Shown here: positions 2,648-45,362 of the stretch, piece after piece
Layout of the letters: every line of letters starts with the position of its first letter
Position numbering within the stretch: the stretch's first letter is position 1
Virus record (IMG/VR): IMGVR_UViG_3300028410_000746
Source of the DNA: a virus
Taxonomy: Duplodnaviria > Caudoviricetes
Direction: 5' to 3' (one strand)
Length of the DNA stretch: 64,000 nucleotides
The notes under the pieces: model-generated
Databases searched by the model: none
Seen by the model: only the letters and a program-made list of their open reading frames with translations
What the model was told of the DNA's origin: nothing
Made by a program: the position numbers and the translations under genes

Positions 2648-3064
2648 TCAGGAGAAGTGGGTTCCGAGGACCTCAGGGTTGATGCGGACCCCGTTCGAGC
2701 CCTTACCCTTCAGGCTCTCATCGGCTCGGCACTCGCGGCACCAGCTCTGGAGGTAGGTCTTGCCCCGAGCCTTGTAGAACCGGAGTCCGAAGGTCTCCTT
2801 GATCCCCTGGAGACCTTGAGCCTCCAGTCCACAGCAAGGGCAAGCGTGGACGATGTTCTCCCAGGGCTGGAGCCTTCCGACGAGACCCCTGTGGTCTCCG
2901 CGCGTCACCTCCGGCCAGCGGCTCACCAGGAGGTCGTAGAGGCTGCTCACCGCCTCCTCAGGGATCTCAGGGTTGGCGTGGGTCCAGCAGGCGATGAAAT
3001 CTTTGCGGAGGTTGAGGCTCTTGGCGTTCTTGAGGCTCTTGGCGGCGGCGTTCTGGACTTTCAT
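2648..3064 (-). CDS. Hypothetical protein, putative Zn finger (CPCC...CREC)
   Basis: ORF behind promoter module 2. Confidence 0.6.
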   Translation of the reverse strand: MKVQNAAAKSLKNAKSLNLRKDFIACWTHANPEIPEEAVSSLYDLLVSRWPEVTRGDHRGLVGRLQPWENIVHACPCCGLEAQGLQGIKETFGLRFYKARGKTYLQSWCRECRADESLKGKGSNGVRINPEVLGTHFS

Positions 3065-3155
3065 GACTTCCTCTCTTTCGTGTTGCGCCGTGATCCGGCG
3101 CCGTGTCTCTCTTGTCTCTCACCTCTCATGTACCACAAGGAGTGGGGAGCGTAAA
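3065..3155 (-). promoter_or_regulatory. Repeated promoter plus leader, module 2
   Basis: Near-identical to module 1. Confidence 0.7.
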
Positions 3156-3182
3156 AAGAATCTCAGAAAGGCCGCCGAAATC

Positions 3183-3770
3183 TCAAACGTGGGGGTCCTG
3201 CTTGATGACCGCGCCGCTGAAGCCCAGGCCCGAGTAACGGATAGCCTTGATGCTATCACCCTTGGTGGCCCATCCACGCTGGCCGTTGCCCCGCTTCTGA
3301 CGTCGGGTCCAGCACTGAGCGGGGATGTCCTCAAGAGCGACGCCCTCCTCCAGGGCCTGACGCGCCGATCGGAGGTCCGCAACCCAGATCTTCTTCTGCG
3401 AGTCTACCTTGGTGATGATCGCTCCGTAGGAGTCCCCCTGGACGTAGCGGGAAATCTCCCGACCCGCCTTCAGGATCGGGACGATCCTGATGTCCCTCAG
3501 CGCCAGGAAGTTGGAGCCGACCGCTTCTGCCAGCTCCTGGAAGCCAACGTGCTTCCAGGAGCTGCTCATCCAGTCGAAGAGGACCGAGAACTCCGCCGTT
3601 CGGTGGTCCATCCCCTCTTTCTCAGCCAGGATGCGGCCAAACTCTTCAACGGCTATCTTTTGAAGGTCTCGGCTCTCAAGTTTTACCAGGAGGCCTCTGA
3701 AGGCGAAGTTCTCCCGGTCACCGGACCGGACGTCTGCGAGGAAGCTGCGCATCTCACCGTAATTCGACAT
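3183..3770 (-). CDS. Hypothetical protein
   Basis: ORF behind promoter module 3. Confidence 0.6.
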   Translation of the reverse strand: MSNYGEMRSFLADVRSGDRENFAFRGLLVKLESRDLQKIAVEEFGRILAEKEGMDHRTAEFSVLFDWMSSSWKHVGFQELAEAVGSNFLALRDIRIVPILKAGREISRYVQGDSYGAIITKVDSQKKIWVADLRSARQALEEGVALEDIPAQCWTRRQKRGNGQRGWATKGDSIKAIRYSGLGFSGAVIKQDPHV

Positions 3771-3888
3771 TGTTCTCTCCTGTATCGTGGTGCGCCGTTG
3801 GGGCGTGGTGCGCCGTGATCCGGCGCCGTAGTGTGTTGCTCTCTCTTACACACTCTATATACCACAAGGGGTAGGGGTCGTAAAAACT
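3771..3888 (-). promoter_or_regulatory. Repeated promoter plus leader, module 3
   Basis: TTTACG-N17-TATATA; leader with repeated CGGCGC motifs. Confidence 0.7.
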
Positions 3889-19814: not shown

Positions 19815-19929
19815 GGAATGGAGAGGTAGGCACGTACTTGGTTTTTGCCGGACCAAAGCAGGCTCTTGGTTAGAAGACCCTGTACCCCCTCTCCATGCCG
19901 GGTACTATGCCACACCCCATGCGTAGGGG

Positions 19930-22459: not shown

Positions 22460-22590
22460 CTGTACGAACAAGGGACTGGAAACGGAAGTTTAGCGTGCTA
22501 CCCATACACTACCCCCCGAAGGGGGCCGGGACTCGAACCCGGTCTGCCTCATTAACAGTGAGATAACCGTTTGCCATTCAGATCGTACAG
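22460..22590 (-). ncRNA. Circularly permuted tRNA-Asn(GUU)-like domain (core 22494-22563) in a conserved scaffold
   Basis: Order: anticodon arm (loop CT GTT AA), T arm, CCCCC-TTCG-GGGGG, D arm. Flanks pair. Confidence 0.75.
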
Positions 22591-22610
22591 AACATCACCC
22601 GTAAGGGTTG

Positions 22611-22740
22611 TGCGGTCAAGAGGTTAGAAGTGCTTATATATCAGATGCCTCTACCAGTTGGGCTACGTCGCTATAGGCGCGACGGCGGGGCTCGAACCCG
22701 CAACACTCCGATTCCGTTAAAGCTCTTCAAGCAGACCGCA
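22611..22740 (-). ncRNA. Circularly permuted tRNA-like domain opened in the anticodon loop (core 22641-22713)
   Basis: AA-TCGGA, variable loop, T arm, CGTCGC-GCCTATA-GCGACG, D arm, TCTGA. Flanks pair. Confidence 0.7.
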
Positions 22741-22742
22741 CA

Positions 22743-22882
22743 TACGGACCGAGGGAGTCGAACCCTCGCGTTTAGACCTCGCCAGGAGTTTTTTAGTACC
22801 TTGGGGTCGCCCGTATCTCGTCTTTCCGAGATGTCACCGCAAGAATTTTGGTCTGAGTACCTACCAACCTTGCGGAATCCGT
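22743..22882 (-). ncRNA. tRNA-like RNA with a large structured insert
   Basis: Acceptor ACGGATT/GGTCCGT plus A73; T arm GAGGG-TTCGACT-CCCTC; internal hairpins. Confidence 0.45.
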
Positions 22883-22899
22883 AGGTACCCCCCAGCGTC

Positions 22900-23717
22900 T
22901 GGTCTTGCTGGACCTCTCCAGGAGGTGCGAGGAACTCCCTGAGCATCCCGTCTCCCAACAACAATGGCAAGAGGGTTCCTCATCCTGGAGGGTGGTGTTT
23001 GAAGCTGGGTCAAGTTTGCGTAGCCAGGGTGCAAGCCACGTCTCTCAACGGGGCAAGTTTTGGATAACCCGAGCTACATCAGACCCAGCTTCAAGCTGGT
23101 CCGGCCGGAGCCGGTAGAAAGCTTCCCGGTCAAGGTAGCGTAGGAGGGTATCCCCCAGCCCAACCCAGACCCACTCTCGCAGGTAGGGCTCGACATGGGG
23201 GTTTCCAGTAACCCTGCCTACATCAGACCGGAAAGAGGTGTCGCAGATGCGGTGTGGTCGCGAAGGGAACGGAAGGGAAGGGACCATCCCCATGTGCGTG
23301 GGGAATCGATCGAGTTACCATCTCTCCCACCCGCTAGAAGCCCCCTCGGTGAAGCCCGAGACCTCCCTCCGGGTATGAACCGGAGGGTGTGCTGATTACA
23401 CCAGAGGCACCGTGTCACCTCAAGGGTAACTTCGGCAGGACCTCTCCACGCACTTTGCAGTGCCTACCTTTGCTGATATCCGCGACAGGTAGTAATCCAG
23501 TGCTCCGTTCTGGACTTGCACCAGACCTTCCCGCAGACCTCTCCACCAAAGAAGAGAGATGAGGGGCGTGCCTCTAAAGGTACTCGGCGCTTCATCGGAG
23601 GATCTAAAGACCCGTCCATTTCCGTCGCCTCGTACGCCAACACTTTCGGAACAGAACGTTCGATCAAGAGAGCGACGAGGAAGATTTTTGCGGTAATCCT
23701 CGTCAGCAGATCGAACG
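22900..23717 (-). ncRNA. Highly structured non-coding region in the tRNA operon (several scaffold copies)
   Basis: No credible ORF; many nested stems and repeated motifs. Confidence 0.55.
23280..23308 (-). repeat. Degenerate solitary type I-E-like repeat
   Basis: CGATTCCCCACGCACATGGGGATGGTCCC. Confidence 0.45.
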
Positions 23718-23720
23718 TAG

Positions 23721-23792
23721 TAGGGTCGGTGGGGATTGAACCCACGACCATCTCGGTGTAAACGAGGCGCTCTCCCACTGAGCTACGACCCT
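23721..23792 (-). tRNA. tRNA-Val(UAC)
   Basis: Cloverleaf, loop TT TAC AC, A73. Confidence 0.92.
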
Positions 23793-23877
23793 AAGAGTCT
23801 TTCGAGCAAAGAATGTGCAGTTGCCGGGGGGTATCGTTTGGGGATAACCCAGCGTTCGCGGGCAGCTCGGAAGACAG

Positions 23878-39466: not shown

Positions 39467-39983
39467 GGGGACATCCCCGCGTGTGCGGGGAGGGGTTGAC
39501 CGAGCACTGCTTCAGGTTGTCGATGTGGGGGACATCCCCGCGTACACGGGGAGGGGAAAACTTCTCCTGGGGGGTCTCTGCGGGCGCGGGGGACATCCCC
39601 GCGTGTGCGGGGAGGGGTTCCATCACTGCGCAGGAGCCGATGGCGGCGACGGGACATCCCCGCGTGTGCGGGGAGGGGTGCGCGACACAAGTCGTACATA
39701 AGCTCATTGCGGGGACATCCCCGCGTGTGCGGGGAGGGGTGACTCCGAGACCTCCGAGAGTGAGTCGCCGAGGGGACATCCCCGCGTGTGCGGGGAGGGG
39801 AAGCACGTCCGCGTCGGGCTGGTCAAAGCCAAGGGGACATCCCCGCGTGTGCGGGGAGGGGCCCGTCGTCTGGACCGCCGCTGACCTTATGGAGGGGACA
39901 TCCCCGCGTGTGCGGGGAGGGGAACTCATGGCGAGATGGTCTCCCAGGTCATACGGGGACATCCCCGCGTGTGCGGGGAGGGG
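39467..39983 (-). CRISPR. Type I-E-like array 3 (9 repeats, 8 spacers)
   Basis: 29-nt repeat CCCCTCCCCGCACACGCGGGGATGTCCCC every 61 nt (39467, 39528, 39589, 39650, 39711, 39772, 39833, 39894, 39955); all spacers 32 nt. Confidence 0.97.
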
Positions 39984-41477: not shown

Positions 41478-41567
41478 ACACATCTCCAAAAAAGCGGAGG
41501 GGGAGTCGAACCCCCGGCGCCGCACTCCGCTAAGACACTACTCAAAGAGGGATGGACGCTGCCAGGA

Positions 41568-41747
41568 TCAAGCACCTTTATGTGCGTCTCCATACACTTC
41601 CTGGTAAAGCCCCAGGAGCTGCCGCGCCCCGTGGAGGACCACCGGATAGAAGAGCACGGCGAGGCTGATCACGACACCCGCACGCATGAACTGGAAAAGC
41701 TCCACATCCCTTACGGTGCCCGCCCACGTATACAGCCCGTGTGTCAT
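41568..41747 (-). CDS. Small membrane protein (59 aa)
   Basis: Hand translation MTHGLYTW..VVISLAVLFYPVVL; start overlaps the upstream stop. Confidence 0.45.
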   Translation of the reverse strand: MTHGLYTWAGTVRDVELFQFMRAGVVISLAVLFYPVVLHGARQLLGLYQEVYGDAHKGA

Positions 41748-42190
41748 CCAGTCGGCTCCGAGCTGTCGTGCAGGTTCTCGAAGATGAAGCCCGCCTCAAG
41801 GAAACGCGCCTTGACCTCCGACCACCCCGAGCCCGTCACCTCAAAGAGACTCTCCTGGCATTGCCCCTGGAGACCCAAACGCGCGTAACGCGCACCCAGC
41901 TCCTCTCGAATCTCCGCGTTCGTATCCCAATCAGGGTAGGGACCATCCGCACGATCTCGAAGAGCCTGTGAACAGATGTACACCAGAACCAAACCCTCCT
42001 CATCCTCATACCCGTCGTCAGAGAACGTGAAGTACCACGTCCCCTCAACAGTAGTCGGCAAGACCAGAAGGCTTTGAGCCTCTCTCAGAACCGCTTTGGC
42101 CTGCTTCAAGGTGAGTCCCGCCTTCTCCGGGTCCAGCTCGTGCGCTACGAGGAGCGTCAAGTCTCTCAGGACCTCTTCTCGCGTCTTCAT
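41744..42190 (-). CDS. Hypothetical protein
   Basis: Tiles operon. Confidence 0.5.
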   Translation of the reverse strand: MKTREEVLRDLTLLVAHELDPEKAGLTLKQAKAVLREAQSLLVLPTTVEGTWYFTFSDDGYEDEEGLVLVYICSQALRDRADGPYPDWDTNAEIREELGARYARLGLQGQCQESLFEVTGSGWSEVKARFLEAGFIFENLHDSSEPTG

Positions 42191-42375
42191 CAGGAGGTAT
42201 CTCGCTGCCGCACGTGAATGCTACATGCCACCAAGAAGATCGTGGCGTGAATCCAGCACCTCATGTTGAAGTCTTCGAGGGACTCCGCTTCCAGAGCCGC
42301 GAGCTGTTTCGCGAAGCTCTTTGACTTGAGTAGCACTGCACGGGAGACCCGCCGCTTTCCAATCACATAACTCAT
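42190..42375 (-). CDS. Hypothetical protein
   Basis: RBS GGAG. Confidence 0.45.
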   Translation of the reverse strand: MSYVIGKRRVSRAVLLKSKSFAKQLAALEAESLEDFNMRCWIHATIFLVACSIHVRQRDTS

Positions 42376-42396
42376 ACTCTACTCCCTCTTCTCGGC

Positions 42397-42696
42397 TCAC
42401 GAGAGCCAGTTATTAACGTCCGCCTCGAACTCCGGGTACTCCTTGAGCACCGCGTCAAGGGTGCGACCCGTCCCGGTGACCTCCACCAGGACGTCAGCCC
42501 CATGTTCGGTGAAGAGCACCTCCAGGATATCCCGACCCGTTGCCAGGGCGGTCTGGACAGGCTCCGCGTACACCTCGCGCATGGCTCCGAGGACCCACTC
42601 GCGGCACGAGTGTCGAAGCTCCTCTTCGCGTTCCGCACAGTCCTCAGAACTCGCGATCGCGTGGCGCTCATCGTACTCGCTGTAACCGTATCCCAT
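42397..42696 (-). CDS. Hypothetical protein
   Basis: Behind a promoter/leader copy at about 42700-42762. Confidence 0.55.
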   Translation of the reverse strand: MGYGYSEYDERHAIASSEDCAEREEELRHSCREWVLGAMREVYAEPVQTALATGRDILEVLFTEHGADVLVEVTGTGRTLDAVLKEYPEFEADVNNWLS

Positions 42697-42789
42697 GACC
42701 AGCTCCGTGTGTGTCTGTGTTGTCTTACACACCCTATATACCACAAGGGGGGGCCGTAAAAACTCATTCAGATTTTCGAGAGCAGTCCA

Positions 42790-42863
42790 TGCGCCGAGTG
42801 GGGCTCGAACCCACAACACGGGGATTTAGAATCCCCTGCTCTAACCCGTTGAGCTATCGGCGC
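42790..42863 (-). tRNA. tRNA-Sup(CUA), amber suppressor, copy 2
   Basis: Perfect 7-bp acceptor GCGCCGA/TCGGCGC; same D and anticodon arms as copy 1; A73. Confidence 0.92.
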
Positions 42864-42871
42864 TAAAACCT

Positions 42872-43127
42872 CGCAGAAGACTCCGGTTGTACGGCCGGAG
42901 TCCTCCTGTAGCCCTTATTAGGAGCGTCGTGTCAGGCAGCGGTATCACCCGCGTTCCGTCACCGAGGTGCTTGCCTTGAGTCAGTGTTTCCAGAAGCTGT
43001 GTGCTCCGCAGAACTGTCCGGTTATACGGCCGGAGTTCTTTGTAACCCTTACTAGGGGCGTCGTGCTAGACAGCGGTTTCATCCGCGTTCCGGCACCGGA
43101 GCTGCTCTGTCCTCACTGACTGAAGAC
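42872..43127 (-). ncRNA. Tandem pair of a ~125-nt structured RNA motif
   Basis: Two diverged copies with compensatory stem changes, between a promoter (about 43132-43163) and the CUA tRNA. Confidence 0.6.
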
Positions 43128-43170
43128 ACCCCCTATATACCACAAGAAAGAGACCCTGTAAAACTACTTC

Positions 43171-43422
43171 TCACTCTTCTTCCGAGGAGTCGTGTTCGGG
43201 ACGGGCGGCGGAAAACGCGTTCAGGAAACGCTCCCGTCGCGCCGCACCCTCGGAGGGCTTCCCGAGCTGAGCTTGGAGGTACGGGATAATAGCCGAAGAG
43301 GCGGCGGGACGGCCTGACCCCCTTGAGAGTGCCTCCAGGATTTGATTGCTGCGCGAGGTACGCCCCACGGAGCCGTTATCTTCATTCGACACGGGGACCT
43401 CCACGTTCATCCAAGGCATCAC
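43171..43422 (-). CDS. Hypothetical protein
   Basis: Tiles operon. Confidence 0.4.
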   Translation of the reverse strand: MMPWMNVEVPVSNEDNGSVGRTSRSNQILEALSRGSGRPAASSAIIPYLQAQLGKPSEGAARRERFLNAFSAARPEHDSSEEE

Positions 43423-43930
43423 GGCCCTTCTGAGTAAGGGTCATCGTCGGGCCGCTCAACTTCACCTGCTCCCAGGTCGCCAACTCGCCTATGGCATAGC
43501 TCAAGGGCTTGAGATCCGGGGCGGCCACGCGAGCCTGAGCCGAATCCATCACAAGCACGTGCCAACGCTCCCCCGTCTTGTCTACGAGACGACACAAGCT
43601 CTTCGCATCCAGGGCTCCGTGTATCCACAGGAGCGACAAGATCGTGAGATGCACATCTTCCAGGGGATAGGTCACCACACTCAGATCACCCTCTCCCGCA
43701 GGGTCACTTGGATCACGAGGGGGAGGCGGCTCAAACTCCGTGAGAGCGCCCTCCTGGGATGTAAGACCCCATTTACGACGCAACGACACCCGCGTGTCCC
43801 GTATCAGGCGGCCTATTCGCACCGTCTTGACGTACTTCCAGCAGGTGATGCTCCAGATGAGCACAAGCAACACGAACACGCTCACGAGAGCATACGATAC
43901 CCACAGAGCGGACGATTCCCACCCCATCAC
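43382..43930 (-). CDS. Membrane protein with a possible C-terminal winged helix
   Basis: N-terminal TM helix; RBS GGAGG. Confidence 0.55.
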   Translation of the reverse strand: MMGWESSALWVSYALVSVFVLLVLIWSITCWKYVKTVRIGRLIRDTRVSLRRKWGLTSQEGALTEFEPPPPRDPSDPAGEGDLSVVTYPLEDVHLTILSLLWIHGALDAKSLCRLVDKTGERWHVLVMDSAQARVAAPDLKPLSYAIGELATWEQVKLSGPTMTLTQKGRDALDERGGPRVE

Positions 43931-43995
43931 AAACCTCCAGTCACGTCAAAGGAGCGTGCCCGTTGTACGAACTGCGCGGCATCAAAGTGCATCCA

Positions 43996-44024
43996 CGGAA
44001 CATCCCCGCGTGTGCGGGGAAGGG
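43996..44024 (-). CRISPR. Solitary type I-E repeat with a full leader
   Basis: CCCTTCCCCGCACACGCGGGGATGTTCCG; no neighbouring repeat. Confidence 0.85.
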
Positions 44025-44165
44025 TCTGTGCCAAGAAGTCACATGAGCGGAATCACGTAAGTACTCAGTTTTCAAAGACTTCTCAGGTTCAGCGCCGTTC
44101 GGTGTCACCCTTGGGCGACCCTCTTGACGTCCGTATGGTAACCCTGAGGAGGGAAACCTGTCAAC
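44025..44165 (-). promoter_or_regulatory. CRISPR leader with promoter (leader copy 3)
   Basis: TTGACA-N18-TACCAT; homologous to the other two leaders. Confidence 0.8.
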
Positions 44166-44279
44166 ATGAGCAAGCTTCGCTTCCGCCAATTGCTTCAAAT
44201 GCGCATCCCTCAACCCGAACCTCCTGTCACAGTGTGAGTCCGAAGAGAGAGGATACCTCGAAGTCACACACCTGTCAAG

Positions 44280-44350
44280 CTCTGGGACCGGGACTTGAAC
44301 CCGGAAAGATTGGTTAACAGCCAATTATGATACCATTTCATCATCCCAGA
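44280..44350 (-). tRNA. tRNA-Asn(GUU)
   Basis: Cloverleaf, G73. Confidence 0.9.
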
Positions 44351-44377
44351 AGACGATCACGTTACCGCGACCGACAG

Positions 44378-44462
44378 GGTGTCGGGAAGGAGTCGAACCT
44401 TCATACCTCCGAAGAGGAACTGGGCCACACGGAGGCGAGCCTGCCAATGCTCAACCGGACGC
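44378..44462 (-). ncRNA. Tyr-like tRNA paralog C (loop GT GTG GC); its own acceptor and anticodon stems do not pair
   Basis: D arm, long variable arm and T arm intact; halves complement paralog B. Confidence 0.6.
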
Positions 44463-44467
44463 CCAAA

Positions 44468-44551
44468 TGCGCCGGGTAGGAGTCGAACCTACAGGTCTCC
44501 GAAGAGAACCCTCGCTACAACCAGCCGAGCTTACCAATGCTCAACCGACAC
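44468..44551 (-). ncRNA. Tyr-like tRNA paralog B (loop TT GTA GC); its own anticodon stem does not pair
   Basis: D arm, long variable arm and T arm intact; halves complement paralog C. Confidence 0.65.
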
Positions 44552-44555
44552 GCAA

Positions 44556-44636
44556 TGCGTTGGGCAGGACTCGAACCTGCACGCCCGAAGGACCGGGGCT
44601 ACAACCCGGCGAGCCAGCCAATTGCTCAACCAACGC
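44556..44636 (-). tRNA. tRNA-Tyr(GUA)
   Basis: Complete type II cloverleaf, A73. Confidence 0.9.
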
Positions 44637-44662
44637 AGATCACGAGCCTCACACGCTCGCGA

Positions 44663-44749
44663 CAATGACCTCTCACGGAATCGAACCGTGACCCGCAGGG
44701 GGAGACACCCCCACGTAGGTGAGGAAAAGTCTGCGACAAGAAGTCATTG
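44663..44749 (-). ncRNA. tRNA-like element with an 11-bp acceptor-like stem and T arm, no D arm
   Basis: CAATGACTTCT/AGAGGTCATTG; CACGG-TTCGATT-CCGTG. Confidence 0.45.
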
Positions 44750-44792
44750 CACGTGTGTAATCGAGAGACGTAGTGCTCTCATTCCCAAAAGA

Positions 44793-45362
44793 TTACTCCT
44801 CTCCGTCGTCCATATACACATCATCAGGCCCGCGAGCATTCAACAGGAGCAACTGAGCACCCAGGACGTCCAGCGCGCCGTAGAGCGACGACGCGGCGCC
44901 GTGAGCGTCCTCCAGACATGCTTGGTAGCACGGCTCACCATCTCGCATCTCGACAGACAACAAAACGTCCTCTCTCGCCGTACGTAGTACCGAAGGGGGG
45001 AGCACCGTCGAGGAGGGGCCCTTGAAGCCCATGAGCAGGACCCCAGCGCTCTTTGCGTGGCGCTTGAAGCCGTTGTAGCGCTGAATCAGTTCCCGATGCG
45101 AGGATTCGCGTTCAGGGTACTCGACCGCGTGGGTACGAGTAGGGCCGACGTAGCTGAAGCGAGGGCCTTCATAGCCGTACTCCGGCTTGTCCACGTGCTC
45201 CAGGAACATCTCAACAGGACGTGCCCACAACTCCCCAGAACGATCAGGCCGATGGTACACGGCTACAGGAGAGTCGCCTTCCGAATGCCTAGCGACCCCT
45301 ACCAGAAAGTAGAGGTCACCCTTGAAGTGGCGGTAGTAACCGGGCACCGGTTCAGTAGTCAT
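44793..45362 (-). CDS. DUF1653 domain protein
   Basis: GYYRHFKGDLY..VARHSE..VYH..LWARPVEMFLE..PRF. Confidence 0.85.
   Translation of the reverse strand: MTTEPVPGYYRHFKGDLYFLVGVARHSEGDSPVAVYHRPDRSGELWARPVEMFLEHVDKPEYGYEGPRFSYVGPTRTHAVEYPERESSHRELIQRYNGFKRHAKSAGVLLMGFKGPSSTVLPPSVLRTAREDVLLSVEMRDGEPCYQACLEDAHGAASSLYGALDVLGAQLLLLNARGPDDVYMDDGEE

Follow-up and report, generated by a model that had tools for sequence, protein, structure and literature searches.

Two paralogous RNA domains (units 1 and 2) lie in tandem in the leader of an amber suppressor tRNA gene (tRNA-CUA) of an uncultured phage of approximately 373 kb from lake water. Within the stretch of DNA that was analyzed (64,000 nt, approximately 60% GC, referred to as the window), the feature is a real, well-delimited orphan for whose conserved fold the internal evidence is good. 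The units are small structured RNAs of the kind found in phage tRNA clusters, without known relatives. Comparison of the two copies indicates that they are structured RNA under selection, the helices having been kept while the copies diverged. We favor the reading that they are stable small RNAs, specific to this lineage, that mature from a tRNA precursor, with a probability of roughly 0.4; their transcription, processing, stability and function in trans are predicted from the sequence.

All features of the locus were on the minus strand, which is the coding strand here and the strand of all neighboring genes. In that direction, the stop codon of an 82-aa ORF was followed by a promoter, a leader of approximately 265 nt, tRNA-CUA and a second copy of the promoter (Table 1). 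The flanking ORFs were ORFans, for which searches of 5.8 billion protein clusters and of IMG/VR yielded no relatives. The locus was present in three data sets, and its copies were 100% identical, with zero variation. The promoter TTTACA-N17-TATATA reported in a first-pass annotation of this DNA was recovered (-35 TTTACA, 43162-43157; 17-nt spacer; -10 TATATA, 43139-43134; TGTGG plus TATATA, 43144-43134) and proved to be one member of a family. Seven copies of the design TTTACR-N17-TATAYR were found in the 64-kb window, all on the minus strand; six had the 17-nt spacing, and TGTGG stood just before the -10 element in five. Besides the two at this locus, copies were located at 3884, 4952, 14042, 46018 and 54307 (minus strand), and one similar site was carried by the closest relative of the phage (L104:17358). 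Judging from the promoter spacing, the transcript is predicted to start near 43127. Promoter, units and tRNA adjoined one another on one strand without an intervening terminator, a layout from which we infer that the promoter, both units and tRNA-CUA very probably belong to one primary transcript.

Table 1. Features of the tRNA-CUA locus in order of transcription, with positions in the window.
Feature	Position	Strand	Basis or remark
Stop codon of the 82-aa ORF	43173-43171	-	Read from the sequence
Sigma-70-type phage promoter, extended -10	43134..43162	-	Read from the sequence; activity predicted
5′ leader strand of the long helix	43114..43128	-	Inverted repeat; pairs with linker 42986-42972
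Unit 1, 109 nt	43003..43111	-	Covariance model R1, 133.7 bits
Inter-unit linker	42977..43002	-	3′ part and first bases of unit 2 (42986-42972) pair with the 5′ leader
Unit 2, 109 nt	42868..42976	-	Covariance model R1, 130.5 bits
Spacer UUUA, 4 bases, from the 3′ strand of unit 2 P1 to tRNA +1	42864..42867	-	Read from the sequence
tRNA, anticodon CUA (amber suppressor), CCA not encoded	42790..42863	-	ARAGORN and RF00005 (68.1 bits)
Second promoter copy	42735..42760	-	TTTACG, only a 14-nt spacer, TGTGG plus TATATA

The second promoter copy starts 29 nt past the tRNA and is predicted to drive the next ORF via a conserved 5′ UTR. A consensus scan for intrinsic terminators on the minus strand from 41500 to 45000 found none, neither in the leader nor after the tRNA. 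The transcript had been called dedicated, and it does have its own promoter; however, with no terminator after the tRNA and a second promoter so close behind, read-through into the next ORFs is likely. Promoter copies 43126-43146 and 42727-42747 were 21-nt direct repeats (20/21 identical, 95%) that bracket a 399-bp cassette of RNA and tRNA, an arrangement reminiscent of the mobile cassettes bounded by promoters (PeSL) in T4-type phages. A near-identical 5′ UTR, starting with GUGUGUAAGA, was found after three promoter copies (42745, 14042 and 3866). The tRNA (42863-42790) was confirmed by ARAGORN and RF00005 to lie directly downstream of the units, as annotated earlier. It was canonical, its cloverleaf formed inside the fold of the full transcript, and it looks functional as an amber suppressor. 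The 5′ ends of tRNAs are generally cut by RNase P, and cleavage is expected here at tRNA +1, after the UUUA spacer. A complementarity of 18 nt was also seen between the 5′ part of unit 1 and the 3′ acceptor strand and trailer of the tRNA (43108-43091 with 42796-42779; 13 Watson-Crick and two G-U pairs, including a perfect AGAGCAG/CUGCUCU match); this pairing was absent from the minimum free energy (MFE) fold of the full transcript.

The units form a direct repeat with a period of 134-135 nt, and their cores showed a mean column identity of 87% when aligned with MAFFT and 82% identity over 101 nt in blastn. When each unit was folded alone, the same multi-helix junction architecture was obtained at MFE. 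P1 is a 6-bp closing helix; the P2 arm ends in GCGG-hexaloop-CCGC, reached via GUG/CAC and GG/CU pairs; P3 is a 4-bp hairpin with a tetraloop (CCCU/UCCU...AGGG); and P4 is a long hairpin with an 8-nt loop, CCGUAYAA. In unit 1, P1 pairs 43102-43097 with 43008-43003, P2 pairs 43086-43083 with 43076-43073 (loop AUGAAA), P3 pairs 43057-43054 with 43049-43046 (loop AGUA), and P4 pairs 43034-43030 with 43021-43017 (loop CCGUAUAA) above a lower stem GAAC/GUUC. In unit 2, P1 pairs 42968-42963 with 42873-42868, the P2 loop is GUGAUA, the P3 loop AAUA is closed by a U-G pair, and P4, which has 12 bp, carries the loop CCGUACAA. Folding z-scores were -2.8 to -3.3 for unit 1, -2.8 to -3.9 for unit 2 and -4.8 for the whole leader. 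The earlier claim of two paralogous structured units was borne out, in the form of 109-nt cores with structure-keeping divergence. The GCGG-hexaloop-CCGC and CCU-tetraloop-AGG hairpins that it listed were real in both units, and its conserved loops (GGAAC, CACGACG and CCGUAYAA) were identical in the two. Its compensatory change from GACAG/CUGUC to AGGCA/UGCCU stood in part: the pairing exists, but with a one-base register shift between the units, and it crosses P1. This pairing would be a pseudoknot, overlaps P2 in unit 1 and rivals nested alternative pairings; a 5-bp match of the same type was found in shuffled flanks at a rate of 7-10% per unit and 0.8% for both units. The GACAG/CUGUC versus AGGCA/UGCCU pseudoknot is a candidate pairing and only suggestive.

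The best-supported helix was P1, which was absent from the earlier helix list. Its sequence is GCUCCG/CGGAGC in unit 1 but ACCUCG/CGAGGU in unit 2: both sides had changed in three of the six pairs, all pairs were still standard and none was broken. One C-G pair was changed to U-G in P3, while P2 and the top of P4 were invariant and the loops of both arms differed. Altogether, 21 substitutions in 100 aligned core columns broke none of the 24 pairs, the covariation coming from two paralogs only and essentially from one helix (P1). When 21 substitutions were placed at random 1e6 times, all 24 pairs were left intact in a fraction of 4e-5, at least three double compensations occurred in 0.7%, and the two outcomes coincided in 2e-6. 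Pairing dropped from 100% to 34-50% when the 3′ partners were slid by 1-3 columns. A two-sequence shuffle control of pair counts was uninformative (72/500). The alignment points to an origin of the two units by tandem duplication, followed by divergence under selection to keep the helices. Folding energies were alike on both strands. G-U pairs that exist only on the minus strand were present at the P3 closing pair of unit 2, at pair 21-44 of both units and in the lower P4 stem of unit 2; together with the promoter and the orientation of the tRNA they favor the minus strand for the structure, and a plus-strand structure was rejected on these grounds. Retention of the helices through divergence suggests that both units probably function as minus-strand RNA.

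The 5′ leader (43128-43114) paired with the linker (42986-42972) at 14 of 15 positions, G-U pairs counted, and this inverted repeat was 87% complementary by Watson-Crick pairs alone; pairing at 14/15 was reached by 10 of 20,000 shuffles. The leader-linker helix was present in both the MFE and the centroid fold. With a further 6-bp helix and P1, it makes up an interrupted rod of 14-26 bp that encloses unit 1. The full-length fold (z -4.1) consisted of three independent modules, namely the rod with unit 1, unit 2 and the tRNA cloverleaf, and it contained no competing structure and nothing that sequesters the tRNA. Stable RNAs and processing stalks typically have paired ends.

No relatives of the units were detected. 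With cmscan and Rfam 15, only tRNAs were matched in the whole window at gathering thresholds, and at E ≤ 10 only the tRNA and a spurious antisense match on it were returned for 42650-43250, the units matching no Rfam family even at this threshold. A covariance model built from the two units (R1), which remote homologs could escape, matched only units 1 and 2 in the window. Searches with blastn in distant mode against 50,697 GenBank phage records matched only the tRNA. Scans of IMG/VR with four to five IUPAC or gapped patterns, which demand exact matches, gave chance matches, none of them confirmed by R1; a three-segment pattern hit 16 loci in JGI metagenomes and 12 in GTDB genomes, again with none confirmed. 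The phage of the window was itself not returned by the JGI metagenome or IMG/VR scans and is apparently absent from both. R1 gave 0 matches over 74 whole IMG/VR huge-phage records sharing a 396-aa anchor protein, 18 of which were at least 90% complete, and blastn at word size 7 found no similarity to the units in any of the 189 fetched loci. The motif, for which homologs and covariation had been looked for, was accordingly without homologs in GenBank phages, IMG/VR, JGI metagenomes and GTDB, and its covariation is between two paralogs only.

The closest relative (437,490 bp, approximately 50% amino-acid identity in the anchor protein) carries a syntenic tRNA island, consisting of Lon, Thr/Leu tRNAs, the anchor, Ser/Ser/Leu-AAG tRNAs, DUF1653, and Tyr and Asn tRNAs. 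Its equivalent slot held a plain promoter, a leader of approximately 12 nt and tRNA-Lys(CUU), with no unit, indicating that the motif is a lineage-specific addition. This tRNA-Lys(CUU) (L104:15892-15966) and tRNA-CUA occupy the same island position, after tRNA-Tyr and tRNA-Asn, and are 80% identical over positions 8-66. From this resemblance, the origin of the suppressor may lie in a Lys tRNA rather than in a Phe scaffold; the step from CUU to CUA is one base. Elsewhere in the relative, tRNA-Phe(GAA) lies 3 nt after a strong terminator, a GC-rich hairpin followed by a U6 tail (L104:14170-14263), which is the opposite of the structured leader before tRNA-CUA.

If the units are stable small RNAs, the locus would be a small non-coding RNA cassette in which the phage promoter drives one precursor, made up of the 5′ rod, the two multi-helix domains of approximately 109 nt and then tRNA-CUA. 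RNase P, in cutting at the 5′ end of the tRNA, would generate the 3′ end of the small RNA, and cleavage by RNase III or RNase E in the leader-linker rod would help to separate the units. The tRNA would serve as a built-in processing signal and not as a regulated target. The products would be stable trans-acting small RNAs, or one bipartite RNA of approximately 265 nt; a protein-binding scaffold or decoy is an example of a candidate function in trans. Several observations favor this reading: the doubly changed pairs of P1 and the intact set of 24 pairs, the like and independent folding of both units within a modular full-length fold free of competing structure, the predicted 5′ end of the transcript locked into the 14/15 helix with the linker, the strand of the G-U pairs, and the lack of an expression platform that would make the units cis-regulators. 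Its genomic context also fits, with Y-RNA-like genes between tRNAs and end-paired spacers abutting tRNAs, and RNAC and RNAD from the tRNA region of phage T4 provide a precedent. On the other side, no homolog was found for the two paralogs with their essentially single covarying helix, the rod is interrupted and at 14-26 bp departs from a textbook RNase III site, neither a partner protein nor a target was identified, and a purely cis role in precursor stabilization or folding fits the same facts.

RNAC and RNAD of T4 are matured from tRNA precursor transcripts. They are small RNAs of a phage tRNA gene cluster, co-transcribed with it and of unknown role (PMC3014915, PMC9697503). The units likewise adjoin a tRNA gene on the same strand with no terminator between, a likeness of description and not of compared sequence or structure. 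They differ from RNAC and RNAD in being two tandem paralogs before a single suppressor tRNA in an unrelated huge phage, and in being known here from sequence alone. Y RNAs of the YrlA type (RF02553) are similar in their paired 5′ and 3′ ends and are interspersed with tRNA genes in the same phage; however, the units lack the tRNA-like T-arm and the GGUC/GACC stem motif. The YrlA model gave weak, sub-threshold matches at 22476-22731 (27-33 bits) and none in 42650-43250 at E ≤ 10, and blastn found no similarity between the units and the Y-RNA-like copies of the window (22460-23874). A Y RNA identity of the units was rejected for want of an RF02553 match at E ≤ 10 and of a T-arm.

The non-tRNA content of the tRNA islands of huge phages is almost unexplored. 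The cassette, clean and compact, is a candidate new folded RNA that shares its precursor with a tRNA reading a stop codon, and stable trans-acting RNAs from it would add to the few small RNAs of phage tRNA regions (T4 RNAC/RNAD and phage Y RNAs), none of which, to our knowledge, has an established function. Although the phage is uncultured, the cassette is small enough to be synthesized and tested in a laboratory host.

A leader that acts in cis and senses nothing is possible but unlikely. It would stabilize the precursor by shielding its 5′ end, insulate the folding of the tRNA against upstream transcripts or tune processing by RNase P/RNase E, and the units would have no independent function after release. 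The sequestration of the 5′ end in a helix, the end of unit 2 only 4 nt from the RNase P site, and the structured, end-paired spacers upstream of other tRNAs of the phage are all compatible with such a role, as is the failure to find a homolog or to identify a trans target. However, a 5′ hairpin would suffice for simple stabilization, which would not require two multi-helix domains of approximately 109 nt that have stayed intact while diverging by 13-18% and whose junction sequences are identical; the positional counterpart in the relative and the tRNA-CUA genes of other huge phages make do with short plain leaders. A role at the level of DNA, as tandem protein-binding sites, iterons or a decaying duplicated insertion without RNA function, is improbable. 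The P4 dyad (7-bp/N8/7-bp) is operator-like and conserved in both units, the cassette is lineage-specific, and the 21-nt promoter repeats that bracket it suggest acquisition by recombination. No operator model, however, explains compensation in P1 between positions approximately 90 nt apart; the G-U pairs are strand-specific, the substitutions avoid or compensate the stems, which argues against neutral decay, and only two adjacent copies were found in the window, with no sign of mobility.

The first-pass annotation had read the units as riboswitch- or T-box-like and the suppressor as signal-gated. According to this proposal, a tandem sensor gates the amber suppressor by a ligand or a tRNA and makes TAG read-through conditional, an example of a target being an amber-gated Pth2-like gene. 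Two homologous domains with a leader-linker helix are also the layout of the tandem glycine riboswitch (PMC4201829). The resemblance to that riboswitch (RF00504) lies in two homologous junction domains of approximately 100 nt and the leader-linker helix, and it is one of layout only: the units gave no covariance model match, their helix layout and conserved nucleotides are different, no expression platform is present, and the downstream gene is a tRNA and not an mRNA. The likeness to a T-box leader (RF00230) is superficial, namely a structured leader associated with a tRNA. The string GGGUGAUACCGC in unit 2 resembles the T-box sequence; however, a covariance model match, a Stem I with specifier loop and K-turn, an antiterminator bulge and a terminator were all absent, and the locus regulates no aminoacyl-tRNA synthetase or amino-acid gene. 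Also favorable to a sensor are the junction sequences GGAAC, CACGACG and CCGUAYAA shared by both units, the competition of the candidate pseudoknot with nested pairings, and the UUUU that follows P1 of unit 2 and abuts the RNase P site, where the stability of P1 could affect termination or cleavage.

The proposal of signal gating was not supported by the searches and folds. No Rfam riboswitch or T-box was matched at E ≤ 10. Neither a terminator/antiterminator nor any other expression platform was found, only UUUA standing between unit 2 and the tRNA, and unit 1 is enclosed in the rod with no platform of any kind. The tRNA cloverleaf forms independently, and no alternative fold involves it. The generic riboswitch platforms, a terminator or sequestration of an RBS, have no counterpart at this locus, where the downstream tRNA has no RBS. 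The motif was also absent from the second tRNA-CUA gene beside the Pth2-like gene and from the tRNA-CUA genes of other huge phages. We regard a riboswitch- or T-box-like sensor as improbable, and we know of no riboswitch that controls a tRNA. It is very improbable that the units form a new tandem sensor RNA class, responding to a metabolite, a tRNA or a phage or host protein and controlling termination at the P1-UUUU of unit 2 or access of RNase P 4 nt downstream, with the suppressor made conditional. Were this so, TAG-interrupted phage genes would be read through conditionally, linking cell state to stop-codon read-through, and it would be the first case of a tRNA, and of genetic-code usage, being controlled in a riboswitch-like way.

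Other identities were considered and rejected. A protein-coding origin was set aside since, in the only shared frame, all seven substitutions before the indel fall at codon positions 1 or 2, and the 1-nt indel at alignment column 72 breaks that frame. The phage has a type I-E CRISPR system, whose repeat (39467-39983) is 29 nt long with a 6-bp hairpin, CCCCGC/GCGGGG, plus a handle, and a period of approximately 61 nt. The units are neither a repeat nor an RNA anti-CRISPR of this system, from which they differ in hairpin (4-bp GCGG/CCGC), flanks and period (134 nt). A tRNA-like element was likewise discarded: ARAGORN and RF00005 detected only 42790-42863, and the units, with a 6-bp closing helix and three arms, have dimensions and loops that are not those of a tRNA.

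A second tRNA-CUA gene of the phage (19814-19742) was identical to the first in the D and anticodon arms and differed from it in the acceptor and T stems; the two are paralogs that might be charged differently. It adjoins the Pth2-like gene and has a different leader, a hairpin of approximately 90 nt without the unit motif. The tRNA-CUA genes of three other huge phages (L142, L171 and L191) were plain upstream with no unit motif, and no leader motif was present in an IMG/VR phage whose anticodon arm was nearly identical. A general link of the motif to suppressor tRNAs was not upheld, as the motif was missing from the second tRNA-CUA of the phage and from these three huge phages. In L171 (IMG/VR UViG_3300010430_000547), a fragment of a distant huge phage with low GC content, tRNA-Leu and tRNA-CUA are separated by a non-coding spacer of 307 nt (2880-3186) that has no similarity to the units. 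Two further structured spacers were found on the minus strand of the window, the leader of the second tRNA-CUA (19815-19905; z -2.7) and the Trp-Val spacer (23793-23877; z -3.5); both have ends that pair with each other and reach to within 0-4 nt of the tRNA. The tRNA island of the phage is dense in structured RNAs other than tRNAs, namely Y-RNA-like genes and end-paired spacers. The Trp-Val spacer starts with CUGUCUUC; the same UGUCUUC occurs in the leader that holds units 1 and 2.

Stop triplets were found in the same alignment columns of the two units. Unit 1 has UAG in the junction (43067-43065) and UAGUAA across the P3 loop (43054-43049), and unit 2 has UGA (42932-42930) and UAAUAA (42919-42914) at those columns. 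All three stop triplets are displayed in this way beside a stop-codon-reading tRNA, which may be a coincidence, since the triplets interconvert by transitions.
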